Shown piece after piece: positions 109-57,281 of a DNA stretch of 64,000 nt. How positions within the stretch are numbered: the stretch's first letter is position 1; every line of letters begins with the position of its first letter. The stretch spans positions 1,310 to 65,309 of IMG/VR virus record IMGVR_UViG_3300045996_000252. One strand, 5' to 3'. This DNA is from a virus. Both the position numbers and the translations under genes were made by a program. Under the pieces are notes generated by a model. It saw only the letters and a list, made by a program, of their open reading frames with translations, made no database searches and was not told the origin of the DNA.

Positions 109-115
109 ATGAATT

Positions 116-267: not shown

Positions 268-272
268 ATGAT

Positions 273-348: not shown

Positions 349-351
349 ACG

Positions 352-642: not shown

Positions 643-658
643 GTAATCCCCTTTGTTT

Positions 659-736
659 TGGTGGAGGCGTGGAGAATCGAACTCCAATTTTGCGGGTGCA
701 AACCGCCCGTGTAGACACCACTAGCACTACACCCCC
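659..736 (-). tRNA. tRNA, anticodon probably TGC (Ala?)
   Basis: T-arm tggag-aatcgaa-ctcca at 670-686. Acceptor stem is 7 bp with G-U pairs. CCA is encoded. Confidence 0.6.
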
Positions 737-808
737 ACATATGGTGTTCGTTTCGTGAACCACTCGTCGGGCTGGTATACCGAAGGTCTGTTTGCGTCAG
801 ACCGCGTT

Positions 809-885
809 TGGCTGGAAGTGAAGGAGTCGAACCTTCAAACGCATGGTTCAAAGCCATACTGCTTTACCAGTTTGCATAACTTCCA
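809..885 (-). tRNA. tRNA-Gln(TTG)
   Basis: T-arm gaagg-agtcgaa-ccttc. Acceptor tggaagt/acttcca is perfect. Anticodon loop rc is CTTTGAA. Confidence 0.75.
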
Positions 886-894
886 ACGCGAATA

Positions 895-970
895 TGGTGT
901 CGCCACACCGGATCGAACGGTGACCTCAAGGGCTTCAACCTAGCGTACAGACCAACTATACGATAGCGAC
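895..970 (-). tRNA. tRNA-Phe(GAA)
   Basis: T-arm caccg-gatcgaa-cggtg. D-arm and acceptor mapped. Anticodon loop rc is TTGAAGC. Confidence 0.7.
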
Positions 971-975
971 ATGTT

Positions 976-1050
976 TGGCTGCGCAGACTTGGATTCGAAC
1001 CAAGATTGCCGGATTCAGAGTCCGTCTTCCTACCATTAGAAGATCACGCA
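976..1050 (-). tRNA. tRNA-Gln(CTG)
   Basis: T-arm cttgg-attcgaa-ccaag. Anticodon loop rc is CTCTGAA. The acceptor register is slightly uncertain. Confidence 0.6.
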
Positions 1051-1055
1051 ATGTG

Positions 1056-1131
1056 TGGCGGTCCCCAAGAGATTCGAACTCTCTGACTCTTGATTGACAA
1101 TCAAGCACCGATACCCTTTGGCTTCGGGACC
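1056..1131 (-). tRNA. tRNA-Asp(GTC)
   Basis: T-loop attcgaa at 1072-1078. Anticodon arm cttga-ttgacaa-tcaag. Confidence 0.7.
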
Positions 1132-1148
1132 ACGCTAATAAGGTTGTT

Positions 1149-1226
1149 TGGTACAGCAGACAGGATTCGAACCTGCACAGCATGCTTGGAAGGCACGAAT
1201 GCTTGACCGTTGAACATCACTGCTGC
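1149..1226 (-). tRNA. tRNA-Gly(TCC)
   Basis: T-loop attcgaa at 1165-1171. Acceptor acagcag/ctgctgc. Anticodon loop rc is CTTCCAA. Confidence 0.7.
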
Positions 1227-1233
1227 ACGTATA

Positions 1234-1310
1234 TGGTCAGGGGCAACGGATTCGAACCGATGCTGCTGGCGTCACAAGCCAGAGTGCTAGGCCACTAACA
1301 CTAGCCCCTA
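1234..1310 (-). tRNA. tRNA-His(GTG)
   Basis: T-loop attcgaa at 1250-1256. Anticodon arm ctggc-gtcacaa-gccag. Confidence 0.75.
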
Positions 1311-1315
1311 ATGAT

Positions 1316-1391
1316 TGGCGCGCCGCAAAGGAATCGAACCCTCACCTACGGGCTTCGAAGGCCCGTGTACTATCCGTTATACGAACGGCGC
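1316..1391 (-). tRNA. tRNA-Arg(TCG)
   Basis: T-loop aatcgaa at 1332-1338. Anticodon arm cgggc-ttcgaag-gcccg. Confidence 0.65.
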
Positions 1392-1397
1392 ATGATT

Positions 1398-1472
1398 TGG
1401 CAGGACGACTCGGATTCGAACCGAGAATAGCAGTTTTGGAGACTGCCGTGATAGCCGTTTCACTATCGACCT
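1398..1472 (-). tRNA. tRNA-Trp(CCA)
   Basis: T-arm ctcgg-attcgaa-ccgag. Anticodon arm gcagt-tttggag-actgc. Confidence 0.75.
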
Positions 1473-1478
1473 ATGATT

Positions 1479-1555
1479 TGGTCGGTACCGTGTGAATCGA
1501 ACACACCTTCACGTGCTTATCAGGCACGCCCTTTCCACCAGACAGGCAGATACCG
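1479..1555 (-). tRNA. tRNA-Ile(GAT)
   Basis: T-arm gtgtg-aatcgaa-cacac. Anticodon arm cgtgc-ttatcag-gcacg. Confidence 0.65.
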
Positions 1556-1625
1556 AAGGCTGCGGCTGACGCACTCCTTGTGCGCCACGTAATCCTCCCG
1601 TGCATAGGAGGGCCACAGAAATGTT

Positions 1626-1700
1626 TGGAGAGCCGAGTCGGGATCGAACCGACACCCTTGAGGGTAAGAACCTCCTGCACCACCGTTGTGCTACCGGCCC
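1626..1700 (-). tRNA. tRNA-Lys(CTT)
   Basis: T-arm gtcgg-gatcgaa-ccgac. Anticodon loop rc is TTCTTAC. Confidence 0.65.
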
Positions 1701-1705
1701 ATGTA

Positions 1706-1780
1706 TGGCGTCCCACACAGGAATCGAACCTGCATCGTATCCTTCGCAGGGATACATCCTATCCGTTGAACGAATGGGAC
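1706..1780 (-). tRNA. tRNA-Arg(GCG)?
   Basis: T-loop aatcgaa at 1722-1728. Anticodon arm tatcc-ttcgcag-ggata. Confidence 0.6.
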
Positions 1781-1786
1781 AATGTT

Positions 1787-1860
1787 TGGTGAGTCCGGTA
1801 GGGATCGAACCTACGACCATGTGCTTAAAAGGCACTTGCGACTACCGCTGCGCCACGGAC
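1787..1860 (-). tRNA. tRNA-Lys(TTT)
   Basis: T-arm gtagg-gatcgaa-cctac. Anticodon loop rc is CTTTTAA. Confidence 0.7.
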
Positions 1861-1867
1861 CCATGTT

Positions 1868-1953
1868 TGGCTGGCATGATAGGAGTCGAACCTATACGTA
1901 TCTTTCAACGCGTGGTTAACAGCCACGTGCGGCTACCATTTCGCCACATGCCA
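1868..1953 (-). tRNA. tRNA-like, 86 nt, anticodon arm reads GTT (Asn?) but carries a 15-nt variable region
   Basis: T-arm atagg-agtcgaa-cctat. Acceptor tggcatg/catgcca is perfect. Anticodon arm cgtgg-ttaacag-ccacg. The 15-nt insert between T-arm and anticodon arm is atypical for Asn. Confidence 0.5.
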
Positions 1954-2423
1954 ACGCTAATACGAGGGTTCTTACGTAGGAATATACCCACAACCTACAC
2001 ATGTAATGTGAGTAGTTTTACCCCATACTCAGGGGTCATATGACAGGATTGTTGGTTCCTGCAAGGCCGGTAACGATCCAATTAACAGTTAGATGACCGT
2101 CCAACTCACGCCGGGTTCCACCCTCACGCTTCGACTTTGGTAAGTCTTGCACAATCCTTACGGTCCCATACCTATGTATTACTTCCGGGGTGGCTGTTAC
2201 ACCACTTGCGCTTTTTACGCTACGTGCCCCGCCTACGCCTCGTTAGAAACGTTATTAGCGGTACATATGTCTGAGGGTTATAAGCCCTCATTATCAAATC
2301 GACGGTTCAGAACCAAGACTTCACCGACAACCCTGCTCAAGCGTCTTACTTACGTGTCGCAAGTGCAGTCGCGAGTTGCACGTGTCCACGACCTCCATCC
2401 GTCTATACCGGACGCTCCTGATT

Positions 2424-2510
2424 TGGTGCCTTGGGAGAGATTCGAACTCTCGTACCCCGAAGGGGACTGGTTTACAGCCAGCCTGCTTTATCCTCTTGCA
2501 TACCTTGGCA
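2424..2510 (-). tRNA. tRNA-Tyr(GTA), class II
   Basis: T-arm gagag-attcgaa-ctctc. Variable arm cccc-gaa-gggg. Anticodon arm ctgg-tttacag-ccag. Acceptor stem has 2 A-A mismatches. Confidence 0.65.
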
Positions 2511-2514
2511 TGAT

Positions 2515-2589
2515 TGGCGACCCTACAAGGATTCGAACCTTGTCCTAAGGCTTAGAACACCCATATGCTGTCCGTTACACTATAGGGCC
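2515..2589 (-). tRNA. tRNA, isotype undetermined
   Basis: T-arm caagg-attcgaa-ccttg. Acceptor gacccta/tagggcc. I could not fold the anticodon arm cleanly. Confidence 0.5.
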
Positions 2590-2594
2590 ATGTA

Positions 2595-2679
2595 TGGCGG
2601 AGACAGAGAGAGTCGAACTCCCACAACCTTTCGGTCATCAACGGGTTCAAACCGCATAAGCACGCCAATGCGTGTCTCC
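2595..2679 (-). tRNA. tRNA-Ser(TGA), class II
   Basis: T-loop agtcgaa at 2611-2617. Acceptor ggagaca/tgtctcc is perfect. Long variable arm. Anticodon loop gttcaaa. Confidence 0.65.
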
Positions 2680-2688
2680 GCGCTAGTA

Positions 2689-2752
2689 TGGACGCCATGT
2701 ATCTGCTTCGAAAAGACTCCGGTGGCATAGCCACGGGGATACTCCGCGTCCG
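2689..2752 (-). other. truncated tRNA-like element (about 62 nt; acceptor-like ends but no canonical T-arm)
   Basis: The ends ggacgcc/cgcgtcc pair. It occupies the slot between two tRNAs with the same atg...tgg punctuation. No TTCGAA T-loop is present. Confidence 0.3.
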
Positions 2753-2759
2753 TATATGT

Positions 2760-2835
2760 TGGTGCAAGTGGCGAGAGTCGAACTCGCGTTCCCCTACTTG
2801 GCAAGCAGGTATGTTGGCCGCTACACCACACATGC
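2760..2835 (-). tRNA. tRNA-Gly(GCC)
   Basis: T-arm gcgag-agtcgaa-ctcgc. D-arm and anticodon arm mapped. Anticodon loop rc is TTGCCAA. Confidence 0.7.
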
Positions 2836-2890
2836 ACAGAATTCAGTTGTTAACGCGGCGTTGCCAGTTGCCGCTCCGTTTGTTGTTACT

Positions 2891-2919
2891 ACTATAGCAG
2901 GGCTGTCAAGGCTTGTCAA
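2891..2919 (-). promoter_or_regulatory. sigma70/SigA-like promoter internal to the tRNA array, firing leftward
   Basis: On the minus strand: TTGACA (rc of 2914-2919), then 17 nt, then TATAGT (rc of 2891-2896). A second TTGACA (rc of 2904-2909) lies only 7 nt from the -10 box. Confidence 0.6.
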
Positions 2920-2937
2920 CCCCTAATTTTGAGAGTG

Positions 2938-3025
2938 TGGCGGATAGTGCAGGATTCGAACCTGCGGTACCTTGCGGTACACTTAGGTAGCAACCAAGCG
3001 CTTTCGTCCACTCAGCCAACTATCC
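2938..3025 (-). tRNA. tRNA-Ser(GCT), class II
   Basis: T-arm gcagg-attcgaa-cctgc. Acceptor ggatagt/actatcc is perfect. Long variable arm gtac...gtac. Anticodon arm cttag-gtagcaa-ccaag. Confidence 0.7.
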
Positions 3026-38226: not shown

Positions 38227-38300
38227 ATACTCCCCTTGCTCTCTTTATATCTTACTTCGGCTATCTGTAGACCTTATACGTATCTTAGGTATCTTATATA

Positions 38301-38316
38301 TATATACTAGTATATA
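38301..38316. repeat. AT-only 16-bp palindrome TATATACTAGTATATA inside a 40-bp AT tract
   Basis: The sequence equals its own reverse complement. It sits between two leftward genes in an otherwise GC-rich genome. Confidence 0.6.
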
Positions 38317-38330
38317 GGTTGCTCGCTTAG

Positions 38331-38636
38331 TTAGCAAACCTTGCAGTTGCAGATGAACCTGTTGCAAGGCTTGATATGAGGTACCTCGATGGTAAAAATT
38401 CCGAGGGCCAATGATACCGCATCATCTTCTAGGGTGTCAAGTGCCACCAGAGTCTCATTGTCTTTCTCGTATACGTCAAAATTGCCTCGACTGGCTATGC
38501 CGTAGGCGAGCATAGTCCACCCTGTTTCGTCAAGTGCGGCCTGTGCGATATACGGCATGTCGGAAAGGTCTTGCGACTTCCACATCCTGTTGTTGAACGC
38601 AATACGAGGTTCTCTCAATGTCTTTGCTCCCTTCAA
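38331..38636 (-). CDS. hypothetical protein, first gene of the leftward operon
   Basis: 101-aa ORF with a C-terminal Cys cluster (CNRFICNCKVC). Confidence 0.35.
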   Translation of the reverse strand: MKGAKTLREPRIAFNNRMWKSQDLSDMPYIAQAALDETGWTMLAYGIASRGNFDVYEKDNETLVALDTLEDDAVSLALGIFTIEVPHIKPCNRFICNCKVC

Positions 38637-39020
38637 CGAGTATACACTAAGCCTGCTAGAAAGTCAAATTGTAACCTCCCACCTGATATAGCAAATTAGC
38701 CTCCTAAAACGCCCCTAATTCGGTCTTTTGGGCGATTTAGGGATATATCACGTTTTTGGCGTTTGTGAGGCTCCTGTAGGCGTTTTTGGGGGTTCATTTG
38801 CGGGTTTACGGGCTTTTTCGACATGGGCGCAGGTGTGCATGATCAATATGAGGAAAATAGGCGTTTATTCGGTTAACGCGAAGTTTGAAAATAGGTCATA
38901 TTTAGTCGTGTACCCTGCGCGAACGTCTTTTTGGCGTCTTTGGAGCGCATTTGAGGGGGCTATCGTGCGTGTGAAGTCTGATAGTGCGCCATATCGGGCT
39001 GTAAGAGTCGCGAGCACAAA

Positions 39021-39036
39021 TAGAACGTACGTTCTA
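39021..39036. promoter_or_regulatory. operator-like 16-bp perfect palindrome TAGAACGTACGTTCTA, copy 1
   Basis: Exact palindrome. Identical copies also at 39116-39131, 39220-39235, 39944-39959, 40053-40068, 41148-41163 and 41209-41224. A near-copy lies at 40004-40019. Confidence 0.6.
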
Positions 39037-39115
39037 CGCATGCACGCGTGCTAGTAGTAGAGTCCTGTGCGCGCCTCTCGCACGCGCATGGTAGAACGGT
39101 GTGCATGCATGCATA

Positions 39116-39131
39116 TAGAACGTACGTTCTA
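39116..39131. promoter_or_regulatory. operator palindrome, copy 2
   Basis: Exact TAGAACGTACGTTCTA. Confidence 0.6.
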
Positions 39132-39140
39132 GTAAGCATG

Positions 39141-39213
39141 TGCATGGTGCATGGTGGGCGCATGGTGCATGGTGCATGGTGCGCACACTGCATGCATGGT
39201 GCATGGTGCACGG
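39141..39213. repeat. CATGGTG heptamer tandem array (about 8 copies)
   Basis: Sequence tgcatggtgcatggtgggcgcatggtgcatggtgcatggtgcgcacactgcatgcatggtgcatggtgca. Confidence 0.7.
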
Positions 39214-39219
39214 CGCATA

Positions 39220-39235
39220 TAGAACGTACGTTCTA
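39220..39235. promoter_or_regulatory. operator palindrome, copy 3
   Basis: Exact TAGAACGTACGTTCTA. Confidence 0.6.
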
Positions 39236-39238
39236 CAC

Positions 39239-39284
39239 TGTGGATAACTACCCTACTAGGCGCAATATTGGTGGATAACTACCG
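39239..39284. promoter_or_regulatory. two direct repeats TGGATAACTACC, each holding a DnaA-box-like TGTGGATAA / GGTGGATAA
   Basis: 39239-39247 TGTGGATAA is the rc of TTATCCACA. 39270-39278 GGTGGATAA is the rc of TTATCCACC. The 12-bp repeat is at 39241-39252 and 39273-39284. Confidence 0.45.
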
Positions 39285-39355
39285 CTTGACAAGCATGATC
39301 CGCCCGTGAGACACTCCGCTAGTCAAGGTAACTACTCCACTAGAGGCTATGCACG

Positions 39356-39841
39356 GTGAACGGTTACAACGTTGAAGTACGCAAGTGGACATATGGCGCT
39401 ATGCAGTACGGTTGCAAGCGTGACGCTATCGCCGCCTACGAGGGGACGCTCCCCATGCTAGGGAACGGATTCATGCGCACGGTGTACAAGGGCGCGCGCG
39501 GCATCGTATACAAGGTCGCGGGCGGTCGCGGTCGCCACGCCGCCAATGACAATGCCGCCAACGTTAGCGAGTACGAGCGCATGGTGCGCATCGGACGATT
39601 TGACGCTACGCTCGCCACGCCGTGCACCCTGTACATGGTCAACGGTGTGGCGATTCTCGCTATGGTGCTTCGACCGGGCGATTCTGCTAGTGCGAGCGGG
39701 CGAGCATGGGACGTGCTGCATGCGAAAGTTCAGCGCTACAATCGCGAGAGTGGCGACCATATCGGTGATATGCATGGGCAGAATTGGCGACTCACACCTA
39801 TGGGCCGTCCCACGGTGACCGACGTAGGGGACGTGTTCTAA
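39356..39841 (+). CDS. hypothetical protein, first gene of the rightward early operon
   Basis: 161-aa ORF. Three operators lie upstream and a terminator lies downstream. Confidence 0.5.
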   Translation: MNGYNVEVRKWTYGAMQYGCKRDAIAAYEGTLPMLGNGFMRTVYKGARGIVYKVAGGRGRHAANDNAANVSEYERMVRIGRFDATLATPCTLYMVNGVAILAMVLRPGDSASASGRAWDVLHAKVQRYNRESGDHIGDMHGQNWRLTPMGRPTVTDVGDVF

Positions 39842-39863
39842 AACACGATCCTACTAGCGAAAG

Positions 39864-39895
39864 AGAGGGCCGCGAAAGCGGTCCTCTTTTTTGTC
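39864..39895 (+). terminator. rho-independent terminator
   Basis: Stem agagggccgc / gcggtcctct (10 bp, one G-U) with a gaaa loop, followed by TTTTTTGT. Confidence 0.8.
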
Positions 39896-39943
39896 TCGCG
39901 CGCGTTCTTTTTTAGCGGGCGATCAGTACCAAACAATCCCAAT

Positions 39944-39959
39944 TAGAACGTACGTTCTA
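39944..39959. promoter_or_regulatory. operator palindrome, copy 4
   Basis: Exact TAGAACGTACGTTCTA. Confidence 0.6.
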
Positions 39960-40003
39960 GCACGCCTACGCCTACGCGTTCGGGTTCGCATTAGGGTTCG
40001 CAT

Positions 40004-40019
40004 TAGAACGTACGTTCGC
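40004..40019. promoter_or_regulatory. operator palindrome, imperfect copy (TAGAACGTACGTTCGC)
   Basis: 14 of 16 bases match. Confidence 0.45.
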
Positions 40020-40052
40020 ATTAGCCTACGCGTTAGGGTTCGCGTTCGCAAT

Positions 40053-40068
40053 TAGAACGTACGTTCTA
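40053..40068. promoter_or_regulatory. operator palindrome, copy 5
   Basis: Exact TAGAACGTACGTTCTA. Confidence 0.6.
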
Positions 40069-40139
40069 CCCGTACGCGTGCGCTATGCGAATGCAAGAAA
40101 CGTGCCAAAAATCGTACGCAAATAGTACGCAAAAAGGGC

Positions 40140-40168
40140 TTGACACGGTGGAGCGGAGCGCATAAGGT
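40140..40168 (+). promoter_or_regulatory. sigma70-like promoter
   Basis: TTGACA at 40140-40145, 17 nt spacer, TAAGGT at 40163-40168. It lies 40 nt upstream of the ORF at 40208. Confidence 0.5.
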
Positions 40169-40207
40169 ACGTACATCAGATCGACAAACGATCCCCTAGC
40201 ACGAAAG

Positions 40208-40456
40208 GTGCATACAATGACTATCGACACTCTCGCAATCGCATGGGCCGACCAGCCGGACTTCACGGATGACCAGTCTAACGACTACACCATGCGGGGC
40301 GGATACGCGGTCGAGCCTATCGCCCGTCGCAATCGCTCGCGGGGCATGCAGGCCGAATGCGGACACTGCGGCACCATTCTTGACACCGCGCATGACCTCG
40401 TTCACGTCGAATCCTGCGAGCGCGAGCATCGCCCATACCGATACGGTGCAGCGTGA
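40208..40456 (+). CDS. hypothetical Cys/His protein
   Basis: 82 aa with CGHC...H..H..C. Confidence 0.45.
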   Translation: MHTMTIDTLAIAWADQPDFTDDQSNDYTMRGGYAVEPIARRNRSRGMQAECGHCGTILDTAHDLVHVESCEREHRPYRYGAA

Positions 40457-40692
40457 GGGCGCTACTCGTAATCGCGTTCGCAATCGCGCTAGTGCTAGTG
40501 CTCGCGGACGTGCTAGCATCCAGCATCGTTCTAGGGCCGATATGTCCACCATACAGTCAAGAGCCATACGCGATTCTCTGCGTAGCAGGGTAAGGTATCG
40601 CTTGACGGCAGGCTAGCGGCGTGTTAGCCTCCCGGCAAGTGGGACGTTACGAATCACGATAACGACCGCTAACAGTCTAGGAGACACGAATC

Positions 40693-41073
40693 ATGGATAC
40701 TACGCTCATTCGTTCAGGTCGAGGCGTCAAGCATGCGAACGCGGCGCTCGCGGCGGAGTTCTTCGACACGCTCGCCAATACGCACGGCAACAGCGCACAG
40801 GCGAAAAGCCTCCGGTCCATTCTGAAGCGTGCAGAGGAGCGGTTCGCGCCAAAGCGTGAGAGCATCCTCGCCCGCATCGCGGCGGACGAGCAGGACGAGC
40901 CAGTGCAGGCGGACGAGCCGGTGCAGGCGGAGCCGGTCAAGGTGCGCAAGCCGCGCAAGGTCGAGCCGTCACAGGTCGAGGCTGTCGAGGCGGACGACGC
41001 ACGAGAGGCGGACTTCGTGACCCGCATGCGAGCACTCGCGGCTCAGGCCGAAAGTGAGGGCGTGAGGGTCTAA
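40693..41073 (+). CDS. hypothetical protein
   Basis: 126 aa with an RBS (aggagacacgaatc ATG). Contains an 'EPVQADEPVQAEPV' repeat. Confidence 0.5.
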   Translation: MDTTLIRSGRGVKHANAALAAEFFDTLANTHGNSAQAKSLRSILKRAEERFAPKRESILARIAADEQDEPVQADEPVQAEPVKVRKPRKVEPSQVEAVEADDAREADFVTRMRALAAQAESEGVRV

Positions 41074-41090
41074 TCCTCCCGATCCTCACC

Positions 41091-41130
41091 AGAGAGAGTG
41101 TACGAGCAATCGTACACTCTCTTTTTTTTG
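41091..41130 (+). terminator. rho-independent terminator
   Basis: Stem gagagtgtacg / cgtacactctc, followed by a T8 run. Confidence 0.8.
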
Positions 41131-41147
41131 TGCTCAGAACGAGCAAT

Positions 41148-41163
41148 TAGAACGTACGTTCTA
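41148..41163. promoter_or_regulatory. operator palindrome, copy 6
   Basis: Exact TAGAACGTACGTTCTA. Confidence 0.6.
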
Positions 41164-41208
41164 ATCCTCCCGAGGGTTCCGGCGAGCCGAGAGCGAAATA
41201 GAACGTAC

Positions 41209-41224
41209 GTTCTAATCGAGCCTC
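41209..41224. promoter_or_regulatory. operator palindrome, copy 7
   Basis: Exact TAGAACGTACGTTCTA. Confidence 0.6.
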
Positions 41225-41379
41225 GTGCCACGTACGCACACTCGCGCACGCTCGCAGGCGTGCTCGCGCACACACGCACAGGCGGAGGTATTGTAGCAGG
41301 CTATGACGTACGGCGGAGCATGATGACGAGTATCACTTTCTTTAGCGCCTAAAAAGTCAAAAATTATCCCAATTCGTGC

Positions 41380-41480
41380 GCGCGCGCGTATATAGCCTTC
41401 GCGTTCGCCTTCGCCTTCGCGTAAGCCTTCCCACTAAGCCTTCGCACCTAATAGATAAAAAATATTGAATTTCGCCTTCG
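41380..41480. repeat. GCCTTCGC direct-repeat array
   Basis: Sequence cgcgttcgccttcgccttcgcgtaagccttcc...gccttcgc...cgccttcgc. The same motif occurs at 42841-42860, 47127-47150 and 48030-48056. Confidence 0.5.
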
Positions 41481-41520
41481 CATAGTTACGCGCAGGCAAT
41501 TTCTGTAAGAAATTGAGGAC

Positions 41521-41550
41521 TTGACAGCCATGAGACAGTGATGGCCTACC
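41521..41550 (+). promoter_or_regulatory. promoter-like motif TTGACAGCCATGAGACAGTGATGG (family member)
   Basis: Near-identical to 45270-45299. TTGACA at 41521-41526. The -10 box is non-canonical. Confidence 0.4.
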
Positions 41551-41559
41551 AATTTTGCA

Positions 41560-41778
41560 GTGAGGTTTTCGACATGGTTTGTTTTTGTGACTGCGGCTGC
41601 TTCGACATTGGGGCACCAGACTTTTGTGACCGCTGCTACGACGAGTGCGTGGGGGTTGACACACCAGAATGATGCTGCTAGTATTCTTCCTAGTTATCAT
41701 CGTGGCGCTATGGATCGACTTGCGCTACAACGACACATCCTGCGAGTAGAGGTACACACACATGGCACATACACTTGA
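41560..41778 (+). CDS. hypothetical ORF (GTG start); the alternative frame encodes a 32-aa Cys-rich peptide at 41574..41672
   Basis: The ORF-track frame has low-GC third positions. The alternative frame reads MVCFCDCGCFDIGAPDFCDRCYDECVGVDTPE with C-ending codons. Confidence 0.3.
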   Translation: MRFSTWFVFVTAAASTLGHQTFVTAATTSAWGLTHQNDAASILPSYHRGAMDRLALQRHILRVEVHTHGTYT

Positions 41779-41983
41779 GAGCCTACAGCGCGCCGGATAC
41801 ACCGTGCTTTCTTCCCGTGAACCGGCTGAGTGGCGCGAGCGTGTCATCCAGCGTGCGTTCACGCATCAAGAGTCCATCTACCATGCGGTAACATCTATCG
41901 CAATCGAGGATGGGCGCGTGAACGACTACTCGCAGTGCGCATGCACACCGTGCTCACGTAGCGCAGGTAGGCTTTCAGCCTGA
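41762..41983 (+). CDS. hypothetical protein
   Basis: 73-aa ORF. Confidence 0.4.
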   Translation: MAHTLESLQRAGYTVLSSREPAEWRERVIQRAFTHQESIYHAVTSIAIEDGRVNDYSQCACTPCSRSAGRLSA

Positions 41984-42006
41984 GGGTTTGACAGACTTTC
42001 GGCGCT

Positions 42007-42609
42007 GTGTCATGCTGTAGCAGTCAATCACACCGAACGAGGCTCACACCGATGGATATGCTAGCCAACCTGCTCGACGCTTACGACAACGCATCAGCCG
42101 CCGACGCCAATGAGGGCGCGGAGTGGTACGCGACGGCTCAGGCTTTTGCCGGAGCGCTGGTTGCTGGTACCAGTCTCTCGCTCGCTCAGGGCGCAGGCGT
42201 GGTGGCGGCACTCTCGCCGCGAGTGCAGTGGTCCGTGAACATGGCTGCCGCGACGGCGATTGTTGACGCTGCGATTCGTGGCGTGGATGAGCCGATTGTC
42301 GCAGGGCTTTCGAAGAATCGCGCTAAGGCGTGGGCTATCGCCAACGGCGGTGACTCTCTCACGATCCTCGGCGGACAAAAGGTGCGGTCGTTCTACGCTA
42401 ACATCATGGGCGATGTTGACGCGGTGACCGTGGACGTGTGGGCCGCTCGCGCAGCACTCGGTGAGTTTGCGACCGATAGAATTCCCACTCGACAGTACGA
42501 AGCAATCGCAGATGCCTACAGGCTCGCCGCAGATGCACGCGGCGTCACACCGATGGTTATGCAGGCGACCGTTTGGGTTTACACTCGGCGGACTGCAAAA
42601 GGAGCATGA
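42007..42609 (+). CDS. hypothetical protein (the start may be Met at about 42052)
   Basis: 200-aa Ala-rich ORF. Its stop overlaps the next start in an ATGA junction. Confidence 0.5.
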   Translation: MSCCSSQSHRTRLTPMDMLANLLDAYDNASAADANEGAEWYATAQAFAGALVAGTSLSLAQGAGVVAALSPRVQWSVNMAAATAIVDAAIRGVDEPIVAGLSKNRAKAWAIANGGDSLTILGGQKVRSFYANIMGDVDAVTVDVWAARAALGEFATDRIPTRQYEAIADAYRLAADARGVTPMVMQATVWVYTRRTAKGA

Positions 42610-42743: not shown

Positions 42744-42864
42744 GAAGTACATTCGGAGCATTGTTCATCATCGTGGCGATTGTCATTGCCGGTGGTGCAG
42801 ATCACAAAAGAGAATTAGCAGAATCGCAGGCGTTCGCGTCAGAGCCTTCGCCTTCGCTTATCGA

Positions 42865-45259: not shown

Positions 45260-45269
45260 AAGGCAGGGC

Positions 45270-45299
45270 TTGACAGCCATGAGATAGTGTTGGCAGCGA
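45270..45299 (+). promoter_or_regulatory. promoter-like motif TTGACAGCCATGAGATAGTGTTGG (family member)
   Basis: Twin of the motif at 41521-41550. Confidence 0.4.
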
Positions 45300-45383
45300 T
45301 GGGGCCGGATGGAAGGTCGGGCCGGGTGAGTTACCCGGTGGCCCTGCATCGCATTTACACATTTTACACATGAGGTACACGAC

Positions 45384-45662
45384 ATGGCTTGTATGAACTG
45401 CACATGGACTAAGGCGAATCACACGAACGCTGTTGCAGCGTCCCTGACTTGCGGGAATTATAGCGAGCGCTTGGTTGCCGAGCGCAACGCTGGACTGACC
45501 GTGGTTCCTGACCGCTGCGCACGGTGTGATGAGGCGCTTACGCCACGTGTCACCAAGGGATCGTACCTGTGCAAGTGCGACCAGCCGCGTGCTCCTCGCA
45601 GCGTGCTACAGGCCGCAGAGCGCAAGCCGCTCACGGGACAAGTACGATATGGAGGCCGATGA
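45384..45662 (+). CDS. Cys-rich protein
   Basis: 92 aa with CMNC...C..C...CARC...CKC. Confidence 0.45.
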   Translation: MACMNCTWTKANHTNAVAASLTCGNYSERLVAERNAGLTVVPDRCARCDEALTPRVTKGSYLCKCDQPRAPRSVLQAAERKPLTGQVRYGGR

Positions 45663-46458: not shown

Positions 46459-46486
46459 CACGCAGGAAGCCCTAAAGGGCTGAGGA

Positions 46487-46505
46487 CTTGACAGCCAAGG
46501 TATAG
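46487..46505 (+). promoter_or_regulatory. promoter-like family motif TTGACAGCC-N7-TATAGTGGTGACAAC
   Basis: TTGACA at 46487-46492 and TATAGT at 46500-46505. The spacer is only 7 nt. There is no upstream -35 box at 17 nt. Confidence 0.35.
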
Positions 46506-46561
46506 TGGTGACAACGAACGGCGACATTGCCGACAAACACGACACATAGGAGGTACACATT

Positions 46562-46803: not shown

Positions 46804-47383
46804 AGTGGTGGCACCTACATCTGAATACTCAACCGAGGGTGGTATGCTACGGCTCTGCATGATGATGCTGGCTGAGGTACACGGTGGCCCATGCTTGCAT
46901 GGTGTCAACCAATCCGTCAGAGGCTATAGGCTTGTAACCCCGTGCGGTTGGTATGCTTGAGAGAGGTTGCAAACTCGCTCAGGCAGGTAGGTTGAGTGTT
47001 CAGATGTGGGTCATACTCAGGCTCACAGCGGCAGGAGTGCCGACGATATGATGGCGGGTATCGAGAATGCGGGGCAGCCCCTAGATGCCCGCCATCACAA
47101 ATTTTACCTTGCATAAAAAGCGGAGTCTTCGGAGCCTTCGGAGCCTTCGAAGAATCCGCCAAGAATCCGAAGAATCCGGTTATTTTATACAGGGCAAGTC
47201 ATACGCGGTGGGATAGGATTCCAACTTCTTCTCTGTTGGAGCCTCAGTCCGTTGTTCGCTTGCCCTCAGGGGAGTAGGTGCCCGAGGGAACGAGAAGCCG
47301 CGCTGCCTACTCCCCGGCTTACACACAGGTGGTCACGTGGGCCGAAAGAGTCTCGCGGGTTCTTCCCCGCTTGAGCCTAAACG
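46804..47383 (+). ncRNA. candidate structured non-coding RNA / leader (no ORF of 60 aa or more in any frame)
   Basis: 580 nt downstream of a consensus promoter. Tandem 9-mers at 47121-47180. A 10-bp-stem hairpin pairs ggggagtagg (47269-47278) with cctactcccc (47306-47315). Confidence 0.3.
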
Positions 47384-47767
47384 ATGATGTACCATAATGA
47401 TGCAGTGAAGTCCAGTCTGCACGCCTGTACTAATACTAAAGTTTTGAAGGAGGCAATGATGACGGAAACGATTTACGATTCGTACGATGGGGACAAACTT
47501 CCGGGTACGCTTTTGGCGCACGTGGATGAATCTGAGGCGTACGAAGTTGATCAGACGATGATTCGCCTAGACGGCGATGAGTGGATTCTGGCTACGGCCT
47601 CAGGATGCTCATGTTGGGACGGCGAGTGGTCAGTCGAGCGCTACGGCGATCTTGAGTCTCTTTTCCGTGCCCTTGGCGTGGAATCAGACGTTGAGCGCAT
47701 GTACAATCCTACGTTCGCGGGCGTTGAGGCGCTGCGAGCACAGGTGGAAGCGAAGTTGAACGCATGA
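47384..47767 (+). CDS. hypothetical protein (the start is probably MMTETIY at about 47457)
   Basis: 127-aa ORF; an aggaggcaatgatg RBS sits at the internal start. Confidence 0.45.
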   Translation: MMYHNDAVKSSLHACTNTKVLKEAMMTETIYDSYDGDKLPGTLLAHVDESEAYEVDQTMIRLDGDEWILATASGCSCWDGEWSVERYGDLESLFRALGVESDVERMYNPTFAGVEALRAQVEAKLNA

Positions 47768-47994: not shown

Positions 47995-48165
47995 GTCCGC
48001 GTTTGATCCCAATTTCCCAATTCAGGCGCACCTAAGAGCCTTCGCCTTCGCGTGAAGGTTGACAAATAAGGAGAGCCATGATAGTCTTACAAAAGTGTCC
48101 GGGTTGCAATCAGAAGATACCGATTGCAGACTTCAAGGAACACATGAAGCAGCACAAGGAGAAAG

Positions 48166-48645
48166 ATGCGTAGATTCTTATTGGCGCTACTCGTACTAAC
48201 GCTGATGATGTTCTCCGCTCCAATGGTGGCAGCGTGCGCACCAGAACCTATCACCGCCAACACGCCTACGGGCATTTCAGGCTGTGAGGTTTGGGGCGAG
48301 GGGATCGGAAGCCATTATGGCCCCGGTGGTGGTGTAGCCATGAATTTCTGTACGTGGGAACGTAGGCATTCGCTAGGTTGCGGATTTGCCACGATCACCA
48401 GTCTGGATACTGGATTGTCGGGCACTTTTCCCATCGTGGATTTTTGCGACTGCTATACTGGCACTGCCAATCAGAGGGTGGTGGATATGCAATTTGGAGT
48501 GTTGGCCGCGCTAGGACTTAGCACTTCGAAAGGATTGTACGCCGTAAACGTACAGCCATCATCAGGACAAGTTGCGCTTGCACAGGTTGCACCAGCGCCG
48601 GTCGAGATAGTGTTGCCTGATACGGCAATGGAAAAGGAGGACTAA
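48166..48645 (+). CDS. secreted lipoprotein with an RlpA-like motif (lytic transglycosylase-like?)
   Basis: Signal peptide plus lipobox (MMFSAPMVAAC). 'GEGIGSHYGPGGGVAMNFC' resembles the G-x-ASWYG motif of RlpA-type enzymes. Ends in the tail VLPDTAMEKED. Confidence 0.35.
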   Translation: MRRFLLALLVLTLMMFSAPMVAACAPEPITANTPTGISGCEVWGEGIGSHYGPGGGVAMNFCTWERRHSLGCGFATITSLDTGLSGTFPIVDFCDCYTGTANQRVVDMQFGVLAALGLSTSKGLYAVNVQPSSGQVALAQVAPAPVEIVLPDTAMEKED

Positions 48646-51586: not shown

Positions 51587-53359
51587 ATGCCACAATTAGA
51601 ACCCATAGAAGAAGGACGAGCGCAGTTCGGCCCCGAGGCTATCGACACTTGCCTAAGACAACGCGAACCGGGTACTCCATGCGTGCCGTGTGGTCCGTCT
51701 ATCCAGCGCCGCGATGCAGGCTGGAATTGGGACGCAAGCCTCGGCCAGTGGATCGAGCCTATGTACGAGCGTTGGGCGCGACGATGGGAAGAAATCTCCG
51801 GGTCATTTGATACCATATACAATGCCACGACTACTACCAATAACACTTTCACAGGCTGGAATTCATATCCACCACCATCTACACAGGAGGCATCACCTAT
51901 GCCGGACTTCAATGGACACAACACGTTCACTCGTGTGAGCACAAACGATAGGATGATCTACTGCTTCCAGTGCGATTCGCGAACCCAAGAAAGCAACATG
52001 TTCACGTGCAGCGAGGAAGGCGACTGGTTCTGTCGCCCCTGTGCTGAGGCGCACATTCACAATGGTGATCGCTGCGATTCGTGCGGGTTCCGCCTGCTCA
52101 ACGGAGGGGCTGCTACCGAGTGCGAAACCTGCGCCGTTGACGTGTGCCATGATCACATGCGACAAGACCACACTGGCTGCGCAATGGGCGGATACGATGG
52201 CCGTGATGACGGACGCTACTCTGGTCGTCCTCCGATTGAGGGCTACGGTCGAGAGGCCACGCTTGAGTATCTGGACGAGGATTACACCTTCCACCCGCTC
52301 GCTCTTGGCAAGCGCGCCGCTGCGGTCGAACTTGAGGTCGAGTGGGACGAGGAAACGAACAACGGTCGGGTGAACCTGCCCTACGCAGTTGGCATCGGTC
52401 ATGATGGCAGCCTTACGAACGGGATCGAAGTTACGACTCCGCCCGCCAAGGGTGCGCGTCTTGCCGAGGTCATGCTGGACACCACTCGCATCCTTGCGGC
52501 CAATGGCTACAGGGGTGAGACAACGTGCGGAATGCACACTCACATCGACCTTCGTGACAAGGTGGAAGACAAGCGGTTCCTATCGCATCTGTTCAACGCC
52601 TTCTTCGCAATCGAGGATATCCTGTACGCCATGCAGGGCGCTTCACGCTACAGCAACTCGTACAGCGTGCCACTGCGAGCCAACTACAAGTTCTTCGACA
52701 TGTACGGTCAGCGGTCGGGTGATTTCGACTACACGTTCTACCGCATGCCTAAGAACCTTGAGTCGCAGCGTGTCATTGCGCGTGAGAAGACGCAGAAGTA
52801 CGGCAGTCCACGCTACGCGGCGTTCAATTTCCACAGCGTCTACTACCGTGGCTCGCTTGAGTGCAGACTGCACGAGGGCACGGTCGATGGTGAGAGTGCG
52901 CTGATGTGGATTGACCTGTTGCAGAGCATCATCGCTCGTGTCGAGGATGGGCATTCGTACTCGGTCATGAAGAATCTTGCGAGCCAGATTGTGACGAAGA
53001 AGAAGGTACGTGCCTTCGCTCGTTACTTCCGGCTCACGGACAAGCAGACTCAGTACGTGATGGACAGAATCGAGAGCGGTCAGGGCTTTGGCTTTGAACT
53101 GCCGGACGGCATCATGTGGGGTGTCCCGATCAAGGGTCGTCCGACTCGCGAGCCTCGCGCTCCGCGTCGGCGCATGCTATACGCTGGCAGCATGGTGACG
53201 TGCCATGCGTGCTCGCACACGTGGTTGCTGGCTGGCAATCAGACAGAGTGCCCGCGCTGTTGGGGTGCCTTGATTGACAGATACGGCGCTAGGACTTACA
53301 ATAGGGTGAGTAGCAATACTTACTACAATCTCAACATTTCATCGTCATCGTTTAGGTAA
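51587..53359 (+). CDS. multi-zinc-ribbon domain fused to a glutamine-synthetase-like amidoligase (Amidoligase_2-like)
   Basis: 590 aa. The N-terminal region (aa 120-200) has at least 5 CxxC pairs. The C-terminal region carries 'TTCGMHTHIDL' and the overall character of a carboxylate-amine ligase. It is co-operonic with the GATase-II gene. Confidence 0.5.
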   Translation: MPQLEPIEEGRAQFGPEAIDTCLRQREPGTPCVPCGPSIQRRDAGWNWDASLGQWIEPMYERWARRWEEISGSFDTIYNATTTTNNTFTGWNSYPPPSTQEASPMPDFNGHNTFTRVSTNDRMIYCFQCDSRTQESNMFTCSEEGDWFCRPCAEAHIHNGDRCDSCGFRLLNGGAATECETCAVDVCHDHMRQDHTGCAMGGYDGRDDGRYSGRPPIEGYGREATLEYLDEDYTFHPLALGKRAAAVELEVEWDEETNNGRVNLPYAVGIGHDGSLTNGIEVTTPPAKGARLAEVMLDTTRILAANGYRGETTCGMHTHIDLRDKVEDKRFLSHLFNAFFAIEDILYAMQGASRYSNSYSVPLRANYKFFDMYGQRSGDFDYTFYRMPKNLESQRVIAREKTQKYGSPRYAAFNFHSVYYRGSLECRLHEGTVDGESALMWIDLLQSIIARVEDGHSYSVMKNLASQIVTKKKVRAFARYFRLTDKQTQYVMDRIESGQGFGFELPDGIMWGVPIKGRPTREPRAPRRRMLYAGSMVTCHACSHTWLLAGNQTECPRCWGALIDRYGARTYNRVSSNTYYNLNISSSSFR

Positions 53360-53372
53360 AGGAGAAACATAT

Positions 53373-54638
53373 ATGTGTGGACTTTGTGGGTCATTCACTC
53401 AGCAGGGCGTAGTCCTGTCGAAGCGTGACCGGACGCAACGTGCACGAGTGCTGGAAGGATTGCTGCTTGCCAATCAGGTGAGAGGTACCGACAGTGCTGG
53501 TGTCGCTGCCATCAAGTACGATGGGACGTACGATCTGTTGAAGGTCGCAACCCATCCCTATAGATTCGTGTCACGCGACGATGTGCAGGCGCTACTGCGC
53601 ACGGATGCTCCGCTCATGATTGCTCATACTCGTATGACCAGCATGGGCAATGATGTGACCGATGAGAACGCCCACCCTTTCGTAGAGGGTAGCGTCATCG
53701 GTGCGCACAACGGCATCATCAACAACTACATGCAGATCGACAGGACTGTGAACGTGGACTCGCAGGCGGTGTTCCGCTTGCTTGACTCGTACCCTGACGC
53801 ATACGATAGGGTGTTCCCGAAGGTGTCGGGATCGTGCGCCCTGTCGTGGTGGGATGCACGTGAGCCAGACGCTATGTTCCTAGTGGCTCACAACAATCCC
53901 ATGTCTGCGGCGTTCGTGCCGAGGATCAAGACGATCTTCTGGACGAGCGTGCTTGAGCACCTTGAGGCAGTGCTGCGCACAGCGTACGGCAACGCGGTGC
54001 AGTACATGGAAGTGAAGAAGGATACGATCTATCGCATTCCGGGCGACAACGTGTACGAGTGGCAGGAAGCCAAGGTTGAGTTCGGAACCGACTCATGGGG
54101 TTCATCCTACAGTTCGCAGATTCGTGTCTACGATCACGGCGGATACGGGTGGGATGATGCCGAGGAAGAAGAACTCTGGCGCACGGGGTTTACCTCTAAG
54201 GGACTGAGTTCTGTCCCAAAAGCGACTGCGGGATCGCCAACTGCCGAGGGCGGCACTACACTCCCGCAGCCAATGACACCAGAGGAGGAGGCCAGATACG
54301 AGTCCTATTGGGACAAGATGATGGCCGAGGACTCAGCAAGAGAGAGCGAAAGCGACTCAAGCGAGAGCGAAAGCGAGCAGCCCGTGAGGCTGCACGCACT
54401 CTCTGATGAGGAGTATGCGCAGATTGCGAACGAGCGGTTTGAGGTAGACGACCTTGACGGAACGCTCGATTGCATGTATTGTGATAAGCCCTTGGGTGAC
54501 AAGGGTGTGTGGGATAACGGGCTACAGATGATGCTGTGTAAGTATTGTCAGAAGTGGTGGGATGATTACGGTCATTACACCACCAAGCCCGTTCCAAGTG
54601 AAGCAGCGGTGAAAAAGTACCCGTTGCTTCTACAGTAG
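53373..54638 (+). CDS. class II (Ntn) glutamine amidotransferase with an acidic linker and a C-terminal zinc ribbon
   Basis: Begins 'MCGLCG' (Cys2 nucleophile). 'AHTRMTSMGN...NAHPF' and 'GAHNGIINNY' are GATase-II motifs. C-terminal 'CMYCDKP...CKYC'. Confidence 0.7.
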   Translation: MCGLCGSFTQQGVVLSKRDRTQRARVLEGLLLANQVRGTDSAGVAAIKYDGTYDLLKVATHPYRFVSRDDVQALLRTDAPLMIAHTRMTSMGNDVTDENAHPFVEGSVIGAHNGIINNYMQIDRTVNVDSQAVFRLLDSYPDAYDRVFPKVSGSCALSWWDAREPDAMFLVAHNNPMSAAFVPRIKTIFWTSVLEHLEAVLRTAYGNAVQYMEVKKDTIYRIPGDNVYEWQEAKVEFGTDSWGSSYSSQIRVYDHGGYGWDDAEEEELWRTGFTSKGLSSVPKATAGSPTAEGGTTLPQPMTPEEEARYESYWDKMMAEDSARESESDSSESESEQPVRLHALSDEEYAQIANERFEVDDLDGTLDCMYCDKPLGDKGVWDNGLQMMLCKYCQKWWDDYGHYTTKPVPSEAAVKKYPLLLQ

Positions 54639-54686: not shown

Positions 54687-55097
54687 TTGCTTAAGTTTCT
54701 AGTAGCGGTTATGCTACTGTTGGTTGTTGCGGTGCCAGTTATTGCCGCAGAAAAGATCGGGCTTTGCCATGCTACAGGTAGCGTGACGAACCCGTACGTA
54801 TTCATTGTGATCGCGGAACCAGCCGTTGAGGCCGCTCACATGAACAAGGATGGTAGCCTACATGGCGACCACCTTGGGAACCTTGATTTCTATGCAGAAA
54901 GTGAGGCAAAATGCACGATTACAATTACGACGCCGCCGAGTCCGACGCCAAGCGTATTGCCGAGTCCATCGGTGGACCCGACGCCTTCACCAAGTCCGTC
55001 CGTAGAGCCTTCCGAGACTCCTACGAGCGAGCCTTCTACGCCGGTTACTTCCGACGAGACAACGATCAGCGTGCCAGACACCGCGATGGAGAACTAG
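54687..55097 (+). CDS. secreted Pro/Thr/Ser-rich protein (TTG start)
   Basis: Signal peptide 'LLLVVAVPVIAAEK', then a PT-rich linker. Ends in 'SVPDTAMEN', the same tail as the ORF at 48166..48645. Confidence 0.5.
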   Translation: MLKFLVAVMLLLVVAVPVIAAEKIGLCHATGSVTNPYVFIVIAEPAVEAAHMNKDGSLHGDHLGNLDFYAESEAKCTITITTPPSPTPSVLPSPSVDPTPSPSPSVEPSETPTSEPSTPVTSDETTISVPDTAMEN

Positions 55098-56196: not shown

Positions 56197-56370
56197 CATG
56201 CCAAACTTGGAGAAGGCAGAGCGCCGAGACAAGAAGCATGACAAGAAGAAGAATGGCATGCGAGTGAACGGAAAGAACATCGCCCTGTTGCTACGAGCAC
56301 AGGAGAAGCGAGACAAGGAACGACTGGAAAGGAGAGAACGTGAGCGGACAGATGGTGATGACACCGGCTG
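56197..56370 (+). CDS. small basic protein (Xis/DNA-binding candidate)
   Basis: MPNLEKAERRDKKHDKKKNGMRVNGKNIALLLRAQEKRDKERLERRERE..., immediately upstream of the integrase, which it overlaps. Confidence 0.3.
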
Positions 56371-57281
56371 AAATCTTCTGCGAAATGCAGACGAGCGACA
56401 ACACAAAGCGGGCATACCGTAACGATATCAACAAGTGGCAGCAGTTCCTCGCGTCACGAGGCGGGGAAGAAACGACCGAGACTGCGCTTGCGTTCAAGGC
56501 TGCGCTAGAGAACACGTACTCACCTTCCACGGCACAGCGTACGTGGGGCACAGTGGCCGCATTCTACGGCTGGATGAAGGGTACGGGTCGCGTTGACGCG
56601 ACTCCGTTTCATGGGATTAAGTCGCCTACACGACCTATTAATGAAGCCCCACCTGTCCCTAGCGATGAAGCAATTGCCAAGTTACTCAACGCTTGCAAAG
56701 ATGGAACGCCGTATGGCAAGCGTGCTTGGGTCATCATCAGCCTCTTGCTCAACGGACTCCGAGCACAGGAAGTTTGCGACGTTAAGATCAAGGATATTGT
56801 CCGAGACACCAACAACAAGCAGTGGATTCTCAACGTACTCGGGAAGGGTGACAAGTGGAGGGCCGTCCCGCTCACAAGTGAGGCGCAGCAGGCGATCTAC
56901 GAGTTCTTCGAAAACTCTATCACGTGGAACGACAGGTACCTAGTGACGAGCGTGATGGCGGGCGAGAAGTTGAACGTCAAGTCAGTGTGGACTGCGGTTC
57001 GCGTGTACGCTCTCAAGGCAGGGCTTAAGGACGAGAACATTCATCCTCACGCACTGCGCCACCACTACGCCACGCGCCTTGTACGTTCTGGCGTGAACAT
57101 CTTCACGTTGCAGAAGTTGATGGGACATGCTCGCGCAGATACCACACAACGCTACGTCCAGATGGACTACAGCGACCTATCTATCGCAGTGGAACTCGAC
57201 CCGCTACACAAGTCGGACGAGTCACACGGCATCCTATTCGTAGACAAGGCATTGGAGCACGCAGATGACGTTCCCTTTTAA
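56340..57281 (+). CDS. int: tyrosine integrase / site-specific recombinase
   Basis: C-terminal 'HALRHHYATRLVRSGVNIFTLQKLMGHARADTTQRYVQMD' carries the H-x-x-R ... Y catalytic box. Confidence 0.8.
   Translation: MSGQMVMTPAEIFCEMQTSDNTKRAYRNDINKWQQFLASRGGEETTETALAFKAALENTYSPSTAQRTWGTVAAFYGWMKGTGRVDATPFHGIKSPTRPINEAPPVPSDEAIAKLLNACKDGTPYGKRAWVIISLLLNGLRAQEVCDVKIKDIVRDTNNKQWILNVLGKGDKWRAVPLTSEAQQAIYEFFENSITWNDRYLVTSVMAGEKLNVKSVWTAVRVYALKAGLKDENIHPHALRHHYATRLVRSGVNIFTLQKLMGHARADTTQRYVQMDYSDLSIAVELDPLHKSDESHGILFVDKALEHADDVPF

Follow-up and report, generated by a model that had tools for sequence, protein, structure and literature searches.

Clusters of a predicted LexA-type SOS box at the start of the early region of a tRNA-rich siphovirus

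The LexA repressor is a dimeric winged-helix protein, and LexA-controlled antirepressor modules are known in prophages. Other mobile elements carry repeated operators of their own: the stoperators of cluster A mycobacteriophages (L5 gp71) are numerous short operators in short intergenic regions that are thought to stop transcription between units, and RK2 and N15 have short perfect palindromes (the KorB O_B operators and the dispersed parS/sopC sites, respectively), located some tens to hundreds of base pairs from the promoters they silence. Among the systems closest to the one described here is GIL01, a temperate tectivirus of Bacillus thuringiensis under host LexA control, which has no CI-type repressor; its early region contains Cheo-type SOS boxes (CGAAC-N4-GTTCG) at which host LexA acts, coupling lytic development to the SOS response (PMC4551915, PMC6182141). 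Prediction of prophage inducibility from SOS boxes has been automated (PMC12527982). Here, we analyze a stretch of 64,000 nucleotides (positions 1,310 to 65,309 of the IMG/VR record IMGVR_UViG_3300045996_000252; hereafter, the window) in which a 16-bp perfect palindrome, TAGAACGTACGTTCTA, recurs where the rightward early region begins. The genome is that of a siphovirus, of which the window probably covers about 64 of 65 to 73 kb.

When the 64 kb were searched at up to three mismatches, eight sites were recovered, seven of them exact and one matching at 14 of 16 positions, the same number that an earlier sequence-only reading of this DNA had reported. The sites form three clusters spanning 39021-41214 (about 2.2 kb; Table 1), and there are no further sites in the remainder of the window; long non-coding stretches elsewhere in the early region (e.g., 45260-45570 and 46960-47384) have no box. 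Shuffles of the sequence give an expectation of 0.13 matches, and none of 100 shuffles contained eight. Every copy (8/8) includes GAACGTACGTTC, that is, the inverted repeat GAAC-N4-GTTC. Since the 16-mer has no copy outside the region from 39021 to 41214, a methylase or restriction motif, which the sequence-only reading had set as the explanation to accept if copies were equally dense throughout the genome, is rejected. As an RNA hairpin, the palindrome is weak (z-score of -1.55), and an Rfam scan of 38300-42100 returned no structured RNA; a hairpin promoter of the N4 type was also considered and dropped.

Firmicutes and Actinobacteria have GAAC-N4-GTTC as their LexA motif, Chloroflexi have variants of it (PMC4951493), and the LexA consensus of Bacillus is CGAAC-N4-GTTCG (PMC4551915). 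Judged by its letters, the 16-mer is a perfect consensus SOS box of this class. We scanned bacterial genomes, one per species (185,579 species, 596 Gb), and found the exact 16-mer at 112 loci, always as a single copy, mainly in Chloroflexota (about 33), Syntrophia/“Deltaproteobacteria” (about 30), Firmicutes (about 20), and Actinobacteria (about 11). The usual layout is cttgacaa, then the 16-mer, then tataag, so that the box takes up the spacer of a TTGACA/TATAAT promoter; the gene that comes next encodes about 195 amino acids (aa). Among 127 open reading frames (ORFs) starting within 130 bp of the 16-mer, 19 encode Peptidase_S24, 10 encode IMS (Y-family polymerases), two DUF6504, one SRAP, and one RecA. 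Adjacent ORFs at three loci (L010, L092, and L061; two Syntrophia and one Anaerolineae) score above the curated cut-off of the LexA equivalog TIGR00498. The identical sequence thus serves as the operator-like element in front of lexA and Y-family polymerase genes. The sequence-only reading had proposed an operator for a dimeric helix-turn-helix (HTH) repressor at the start of the early region; the type of site and its confinement hold, but a phage-specific operator does not, as the same 16-mer lies upstream of lexA in several bacterial phyla and no repressor gene was found. At two other bacterial loci (L105 and L034), the exact 16-mer adjoins TetR-family regulator genes and not SOS genes, so some genomic copies may not be LexA sites.

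Outside bacterial genomes, a scan of IMG/VR yielded only three unrelated single-copy matches (L001 at 6214, L002 at 7931, and L003 at 165). In the first two, which are low-GC prophages (viral contigs of 32 to 33% GC), the 16-mer lies upstream of a gene for a 153-aa ImmA-like HExxH metallopeptidase, and a second Cheo-like box is found close by, whereas in L003, TATAAT directly follows it. Bacterial SOS genes and these prophage modules therefore share the sequence with our phage and differ from it in layout: they have one or two boxes that overlap a promoter, while the phage arrays are multicopy, promoter-distal, and terminator-proximal. The contrast with GIL01 is of the same kind. GIL01, a 15-kb phage, has one strong box (dinBox1), a half-site shortly past the start of P1, and further sites at P3, and needs the cofactor gp7 and the LexA homologue gp6. 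The phages of the present clade carry as many as 8 to 12 perfect boxes in three clusters, none at a promoter core, which lie behind terminators or far upstream; ours is a siphovirus of about 70 kb with 21 transfer RNAs (tRNAs), and no gp6-like LexA homologue was found in the window or in the related contigs L004 and L006, nor was a counterpart identified of gp7, a protein that sequence comparison would not recognize. Stoperators are similar in that many copies of a single short operator occupy short intergenic regions. They are, however, asymmetric, oriented 13- to 14-mers found genome-wide and bound by a phage-encoded repressor, as opposed to a perfect palindrome restricted to 2.2 kb that matches a host operator. 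The KorB O_B and N15 parS/sopC sites are unrelated in sequence and depend on a ParB-family protein that the element itself supplies; no such protein was found here.

To what extent the arrays are maintained can be seen in related contigs. Homologues of the gene at 39356-39841 occur on forest and grassland soil metagenome contigs at 55 to 66% protein identity. Five lineages have arrays of the 16-mer at three shared intergenic slots, with eight copies in the window, 12 in L004 (a 73-kb contig), six in L006, five within 2.3 kb in L122, and three within 1.9 kb in L123. While the intergenic DNA around the boxes is 49% identical with many indels, or cannot be aligned at all, the boxes are invariant. 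Position in the first three intergenic regions, closeness to strong terminators, and multiplicity are conserved across the box-bearing phages, and the order of terminator and then box is kept at clusters 2 and 3. Variant copies with up to two mismatches number eight across the five phages. All 10 of their substitutions fall at positions 1, 2, 7, 10, 15, and 16, and none within GAAC or GTTC; had the substitutions been distributed uniformly along the 16-mer, such a pattern would have a probability of about 0.001. A GAAC-N4-GTTC dyad should show just this, with arms more constrained than spacer and flanks. By this comparison of sequences, the boxes are under strong purifying selection across diverged relatives.

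Not all relatives have them. L125 is a syntenic contig of 17.9 kb that encodes portal, terminase, ThyX, ribonucleotide reductase (RNR), the zinc-ribbon protein, a homologue of the 126-aa protein gp40693, and DUF7178; it has neither boxes nor the minimal kinase gene of unit 1, and other short repeats occupy the corresponding places. L126 is without boxes at slots 2 and 3. Read from these alignments, the SOS-box system is a lineage-specific accessory superimposed on a shared terminator-promoter scaffold. In a small sample, the kinase co-occurs with the boxes: all five box-bearing lineages have it, and the one box-less lineage that can be checked does not. Megablast and blastn of the region against INPHARED gave no match, and the closest portal and terminase proteins are about 25 to 28% identical; IMG/VR holds no close relative, protein-anchored scans of IMG/VR and of JGI metagenomes recovered only distant, box-less homologues, and a two-box pattern scan of JGI metagenomes found no match.

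We then considered which protein might bind the boxes. A Pfam scan of about 85 window ORFs found no HTH, ribbon-helix-helix (RHH), ParB, ParA, or S24 domain, and no scanned ORF matched ParBc, ParA, or CbiA, in line with the earlier remark that no obvious repressor or ParB gene can be recognized in the window. Likewise, tblastn with three 16-mer-associated LexA proteins detected no LexA homologue in the window, L004, or L006. What lies immediately beyond the window can be read from a contig with 85% identity at the right end: this DNA codes for a PDDEXK nuclease and replication-type proteins, and it contains neither a regulator gene nor a box. One local candidate, gp40693, was suspected because of an RHH/HTH-like motif (THGNSAQAKSL) and rejected: Pfam and PDB sequence searches were negative, and AlphaFold predicts three long helices (predicted local distance difference test [pLDDT] of 69) and not an HTH or RHH fold. 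The gene is also kept in the box-less L125 and L126, which makes it an unlikely box binder. With no recognizable phage-encoded binder, host LexA is the most economical one, and the repressor that binds the boxes is most probably host LexA, as far as sequence can tell; this would also explain why the earlier reading encountered no repressor gene. The taxa that have the exact site point to Chloroflexota, Actinomycetota, Bacillota, or Syntrophia as the host group.

The sequence-only reading had described each cluster as lying between a terminator and a promoter. Both of the intrinsic terminators that it placed before clusters 2 and 3 are real, with strong hairpins followed by U-runs, and the stem of the second has a homologue, GAGTGTACG...CGTACACTC, in L004. 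Cluster 1 departs from this scheme; it has no convincing terminator before it and sits in a divergent region bounded by a leftward promoter (38667-38639) and the TTGACA at 39286. The promoter part of the description holds in that a TTGACA follows each cluster, 51, 72, and 307 bp after the last box of clusters 1, 2, and 3 (51 to 133 bp in relatives), and fails in that a reasonable -10 element (TAAGGT) is found only at 40140 among the three TTGACA hexamers (39286, 40140, and 41521).

Table 1. Features of the control region and adjacent genes (window coordinates)
Feature	Position	Strand	Remarks
Leftward promoter, left bound of the divergent control region	38639..38667	-	TTGACT-N17-TATACT; same element in L004, L006, and L125
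Predicted SOS box 1 (cluster 1)	39021..39036		Exact TAGAACGTACGTTCTA
Predicted SOS box 2 (cluster 1)	39116..39131		Exact
Predicted SOS box 3 (cluster 1)	39220..39235		Exact; TTGACA at 39286 lies 51 bp downstream
Two DnaA-box-like sites, TGTGGATAA (consensus) and GGTGGATAA (8/9), within two copies of GTGGATAACTACC (39240, 39271)	39239-39247, 39270-39278	+	31 bp apart; whole element 39239..39283
Putative promoter of unit 1	39286..39314	+	TTGACA-N17-AGACAC, poor -10; GAGACAC element kept in L006
Unit 1 gene, 161-aa minimal protein kinase (motifs and predicted structure)	39356..39841	+	First rightward early gene
Intrinsic terminator closing unit 1	39858..39893	+	16-bp stem, GAAA loop, U-run; free energy -26.7 kcal/mol, z-score -5.3
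Predicted SOS box 4 (cluster 2)	39944..39959		Exact; terminator 1 ends 49 bp before
Predicted SOS box 5 (cluster 2)	40004..40019		14/16, TAGAACGTACGTTCGC; GAAC-N4-GTTC core intact
Predicted SOS box 6 (cluster 2)	40053..40068		Exact; TTGACA at 40140 lies 72 bp downstream
Putative promoter of unit 2	40140..40168	+	TTGACA-N17-TAAGGT; A-rich upstream element, conserved (D10 in L004)
Unit 2 gene, 79-aa Cys/His (zinc-ribbon-like) protein	40217..40456	+	
Unit 2 gene gp40693, 126-aa helical protein	40693..41073	+	Kept in box-less relatives
Intrinsic terminator closing unit 2	41091..41132	+	15-bp stem (hairpin 41091-41124), then T8; free energy -23.5 kcal/mol, z-score -6.2
Predicted SOS box 7 (cluster 3)	41148..41163		Exact; terminator 2 ends 18 bp before
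Predicted SOS box 8 (cluster 3)	41199..41214		Exact; TTGACA at 41521 lies 307 bp downstream
Putative promoter of unit 3	41521..41549	+	Within conserved motif GGGCTTGACAGCCATGAGAYAGTGGTGGCC

Taken together, we favor a reading in which three immediate-early units are coupled to the SOS response through host LexA, to which, with the binding step included, we assign a probability of roughly 0.6. In the rightward early region, host LexA would occupy the two or three boxes that each of the first three intergenic regions contains and would thereby tie unit 1 (the minimal kinase), unit 2 (the zinc-ribbon and 126-aa helical proteins), and unit 3 (a long early operon from about 41.5 kb) to the DNA-damage state of the host. 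With LexA intact, the units would be damped or insulated by the arrays, which would either form roadblocks immediately downstream of the terminators or repress cooperatively from upstream; RecA-stimulated self-cleavage of LexA would lift this control. Because the boxes match the consensus perfectly and are multiple, release would need deep depletion of LexA. Binding of LexA at this locus, the negative sign of its effect, and the action of boxes that do not overlap promoters are what we infer in this proposal.

Several observations weigh against SOS coupling. A random 16-mer would be expected to occur about 140 times in 596 Gb, a number that the 112 bacterial loci do not exceed; with the count at chance level, the evidence from bacteria rests on genomic context and not on number. 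The LexA motif attributed to the host is putative, and the window is an incomplete genome, outside of which a phage-encoded binder could lie. No box overlaps the -35 or -10 element or the transcription start of a predicted promoter, and there are no weaker or degenerate GAAC-N4-GTTC cores at the promoters either. Simple promoter occlusion, as implied by an operator in front of each promoter, is therefore abandoned, and classical occlusion in the style of bacterial SOS genes or of P1 in GIL01 is unlikely. Two syntenic relatives do without boxes, which means that boxes are not essential to the architecture of the early region. Finally, none of the bacterial genomes scanned has two boxes together; no integrated relative is seen, and a temperate lifestyle is unproven despite the integrase-family gene.

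The main rival to SOS coupling is a LexA decoy, or sponge. The arrays, with 8 to 12 perfect sites per copy, would soak up host LexA as the genome enters and replicates, so that the SOS regulon of the host (RecA, polymerases, division arrest) would be derepressed without DNA damage while the adjacent phage genes go unregulated. Consensus-perfect boxes should have maximal affinity, and their multiplicity, their location away from promoter cores, and the conservation of spacer and flanks beyond the usual needs of a LexA regulon would all suit a sponge, as would the absence of any sign of lysogeny in the genomes and the nearby conserved consensus boxes for DnaA, another abundant host DNA-binding protein. 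Yet a pure decoy imposes no constraint on position, whereas all relatives with arrays use the same three slots and leave the other long early non-coding stretches empty, and we found no precedent in the literature on LexA titration or decoy arrays in phages; we regard the decoy as unlikely. Quite unlikely, in our judgment, is a dimeric binder of LexA-like specificity encoded by the phage itself, outside the window or with an unrecognized fold, which would repress or activate its own early genes and possibly compete with LexA as gp6 of GIL01 does. Room for such a protein exists among some 60 small early ORFs without a detectable family and in the missing part of the genome; the LexA homologue of GIL01 does act at LexA-type sites (PMC6182141), and exact conservation at all 16 positions is stricter than is typical of host regulons. 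Against it stand the lack of LexA/S24 similarity in the window, L004, and L006, the absence of a regulator among the genes beyond the right end in the 85%-identical relative, and the properties of gp40693, the best local candidate, with its three predicted long helices and its retention where boxes are missing.

Two further explanations do not involve LexA. Iterons of a replication origin, or a target of recombination or restriction-modification, would fit the placement of cluster 1 at the strand switch (GC-skew minimum at about 38 to 39 kb), next to DnaA boxes, AT-rich conserved blocks, and tandem repeats. They do not fit clusters 2 and 3, which lie between co-directional units behind terminators; moreover, zero copies elsewhere in the genome rule out avoidance or enrichment of the restriction-modification type, and identity with the SOS box fully explains the sequence. 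We consider this group of explanations very improbable. The sequence-only reading had also offered a centromere array of the parS type, here for a ParB/SopB/KorB-like protein of a plasmid prophage. Perfect 16-bp palindromes in dispersed clusters do recall N15 or RK2, and a XerC/D-like tyrosine recombinase is encoded in the window, but no scanned ORF has a ParB or ParA domain, and the identical sequence is an operator upstream of lexA in unrelated bacteria; we give this alternative almost no credence.

Beside the boxes, the control region contains a pair of DnaA-box-like sites, the second of which abuts the -35 element of the unit 1 (kinase) promoter. The pair recurs with equal spacing and orientation in L006, L122, and L123, where these are the only perfect DnaA boxes of the loci, and is not present in L004 or L125. 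From its sequence and location, it may be part of a DnaA-regulated promoter or of an origin, and the GC skew switches sign near cluster 1. A broader idea, which we consider rather unlikely, is that the control region is a landing pad for global DNA-binding proteins of the host, combining the LexA arrays with the conserved DnaA pair, and that it is gained or lost as a module together with a minimal kinase the size of OspG. The arrays would then be a LexA sponge or sensor and not classical operators, forcing SOS derepression on infection or reading the damage and replication state of the host before the take-over genes are committed.

Other conserved elements were observed in the same DNA. To the left of cluster 1 (38884-39005; alignment A6), the non-coding blocks TTTGAAAAnnGGTTATATTTACTCGTGT, GGAGCGCGGGCGAGGGGGG, and TGATAATGCGCCATATCGG are conserved in all relatives, including the box-less L125, and AGAGTCCTGTGCGCGCCTC is a conserved block following a box (alignment A6); none of the conserved blocks has an Rfam match. 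A promoter-like motif of about 30 nucleotides, GGGCTTGACAGCCATGAGAYAGTGGTGGCC, occurs at 41515-41546, 45264-45295, and 46482-46513, as well as in L125 (about 10905) and L126 (about 1440), and has no proper -10 element at 17 bp. A second promoter-like class, TTGACA-N17-TAnAGTGGTG, is found at 42871, 46778, and 51534; between 39 and 48 kb, TTGACA occurs about once per 600 bp of the plus strand. Short simple repeats fill the spaces between boxes and promoters, namely, tandem GCATGGT units and CGCATTAGGGTTCGC-like units (39139-39218 and 39965-40045), and CCTTCGCCTTCGC lies just upstream of several promoters (41395-41447, 42845-42857, and 48039-48051). Relatives have other simple repeats: (CA)n and four copies of TTAGACCCGAGTC in L004, four copies of TATGGGTAC in L126, and ATGGTATACCAT and TATAGGAAGGTGCC in L125.

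The gene content of the window is that of a siphovirus. The minus strand from 4.3 to 38 kb encodes the tape measure, tail tube, capsid, portal, large terminase, ThyX, and class I/II RNR, and the plus strand from 39.3 to 58.9 kb carries about 60 mostly small genes, including those for DUF7178, an SPFH protein, a DEDD exonuclease, an amidoligase and glutamine amidotransferase pair, and a XerC/D-type recombinase; the right end of the window runs into a DnaB-type helicase. The kinase of unit 1 has a G-rich loop and the motifs VYKV, SEYERM, IGDMHGxN, and TDxGD. Its AlphaFold model (pLDDT of 70, predicted template modeling score of 0.69) retrieves only kinases among the top Foldseek PDB matches, including the 168-aa OspG of Shigella. 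The 21 tRNA genes (32-3025, minus strand), an unusual number for a siphovirus of about 70 kb, comprise two each for Pro, Glu, Gln, Gly, and Lys, three for Arg, and one each for Ala, Phe, His, Trp, Ile, Asn, Tyr, and Ser. Two predicted secreted proteins (48166-48645 and 54687-55097, plus strand) have N-terminal signal-like segments and a C-terminal (L/V)PDTAME followed by N or KED. The region 51587-54638 (plus strand) encodes a 590-aa amidoligase-like protein with many Cys motifs and then a 421-aa class II glutamine amidotransferase, a pair that is a cassette of the peptide- or nucleotide-modification type. The XerC/D-type tyrosine recombinase (56340-57281, plus strand; Phage_integrase and Phage_int_SAM_1) lies inside the early operon.

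As a concept, control of phages by host LexA is not new, given GIL01 and LexA-controlled antirepressor modules. The present case differs in its form: 3 to 12 boxes per phage in three terminator-proximal and promoter-distal clusters, beside DnaA boxes and a minimal kinase, in a clade of tRNA-rich siphoviruses of about 70 kb from uncultivated soil hosts. We found no description of such LexA-box arrays in the literature on phages; the known cases of control by host LexA are a few small temperate phages that use a single promoter-embedded box. The finding narrows the host to phyla whose LexA reads GAAC-N4-GTTC, and the arrays, as predicted from their match to the consensus, offer a ready-made LexA array of very high affinity for experiments. 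If LexA does bind them, they would represent either a new way of coupling phage early transcription to the SOS response, by roadblock, insulation, or action at a distance, or the first natural LexA decoy.

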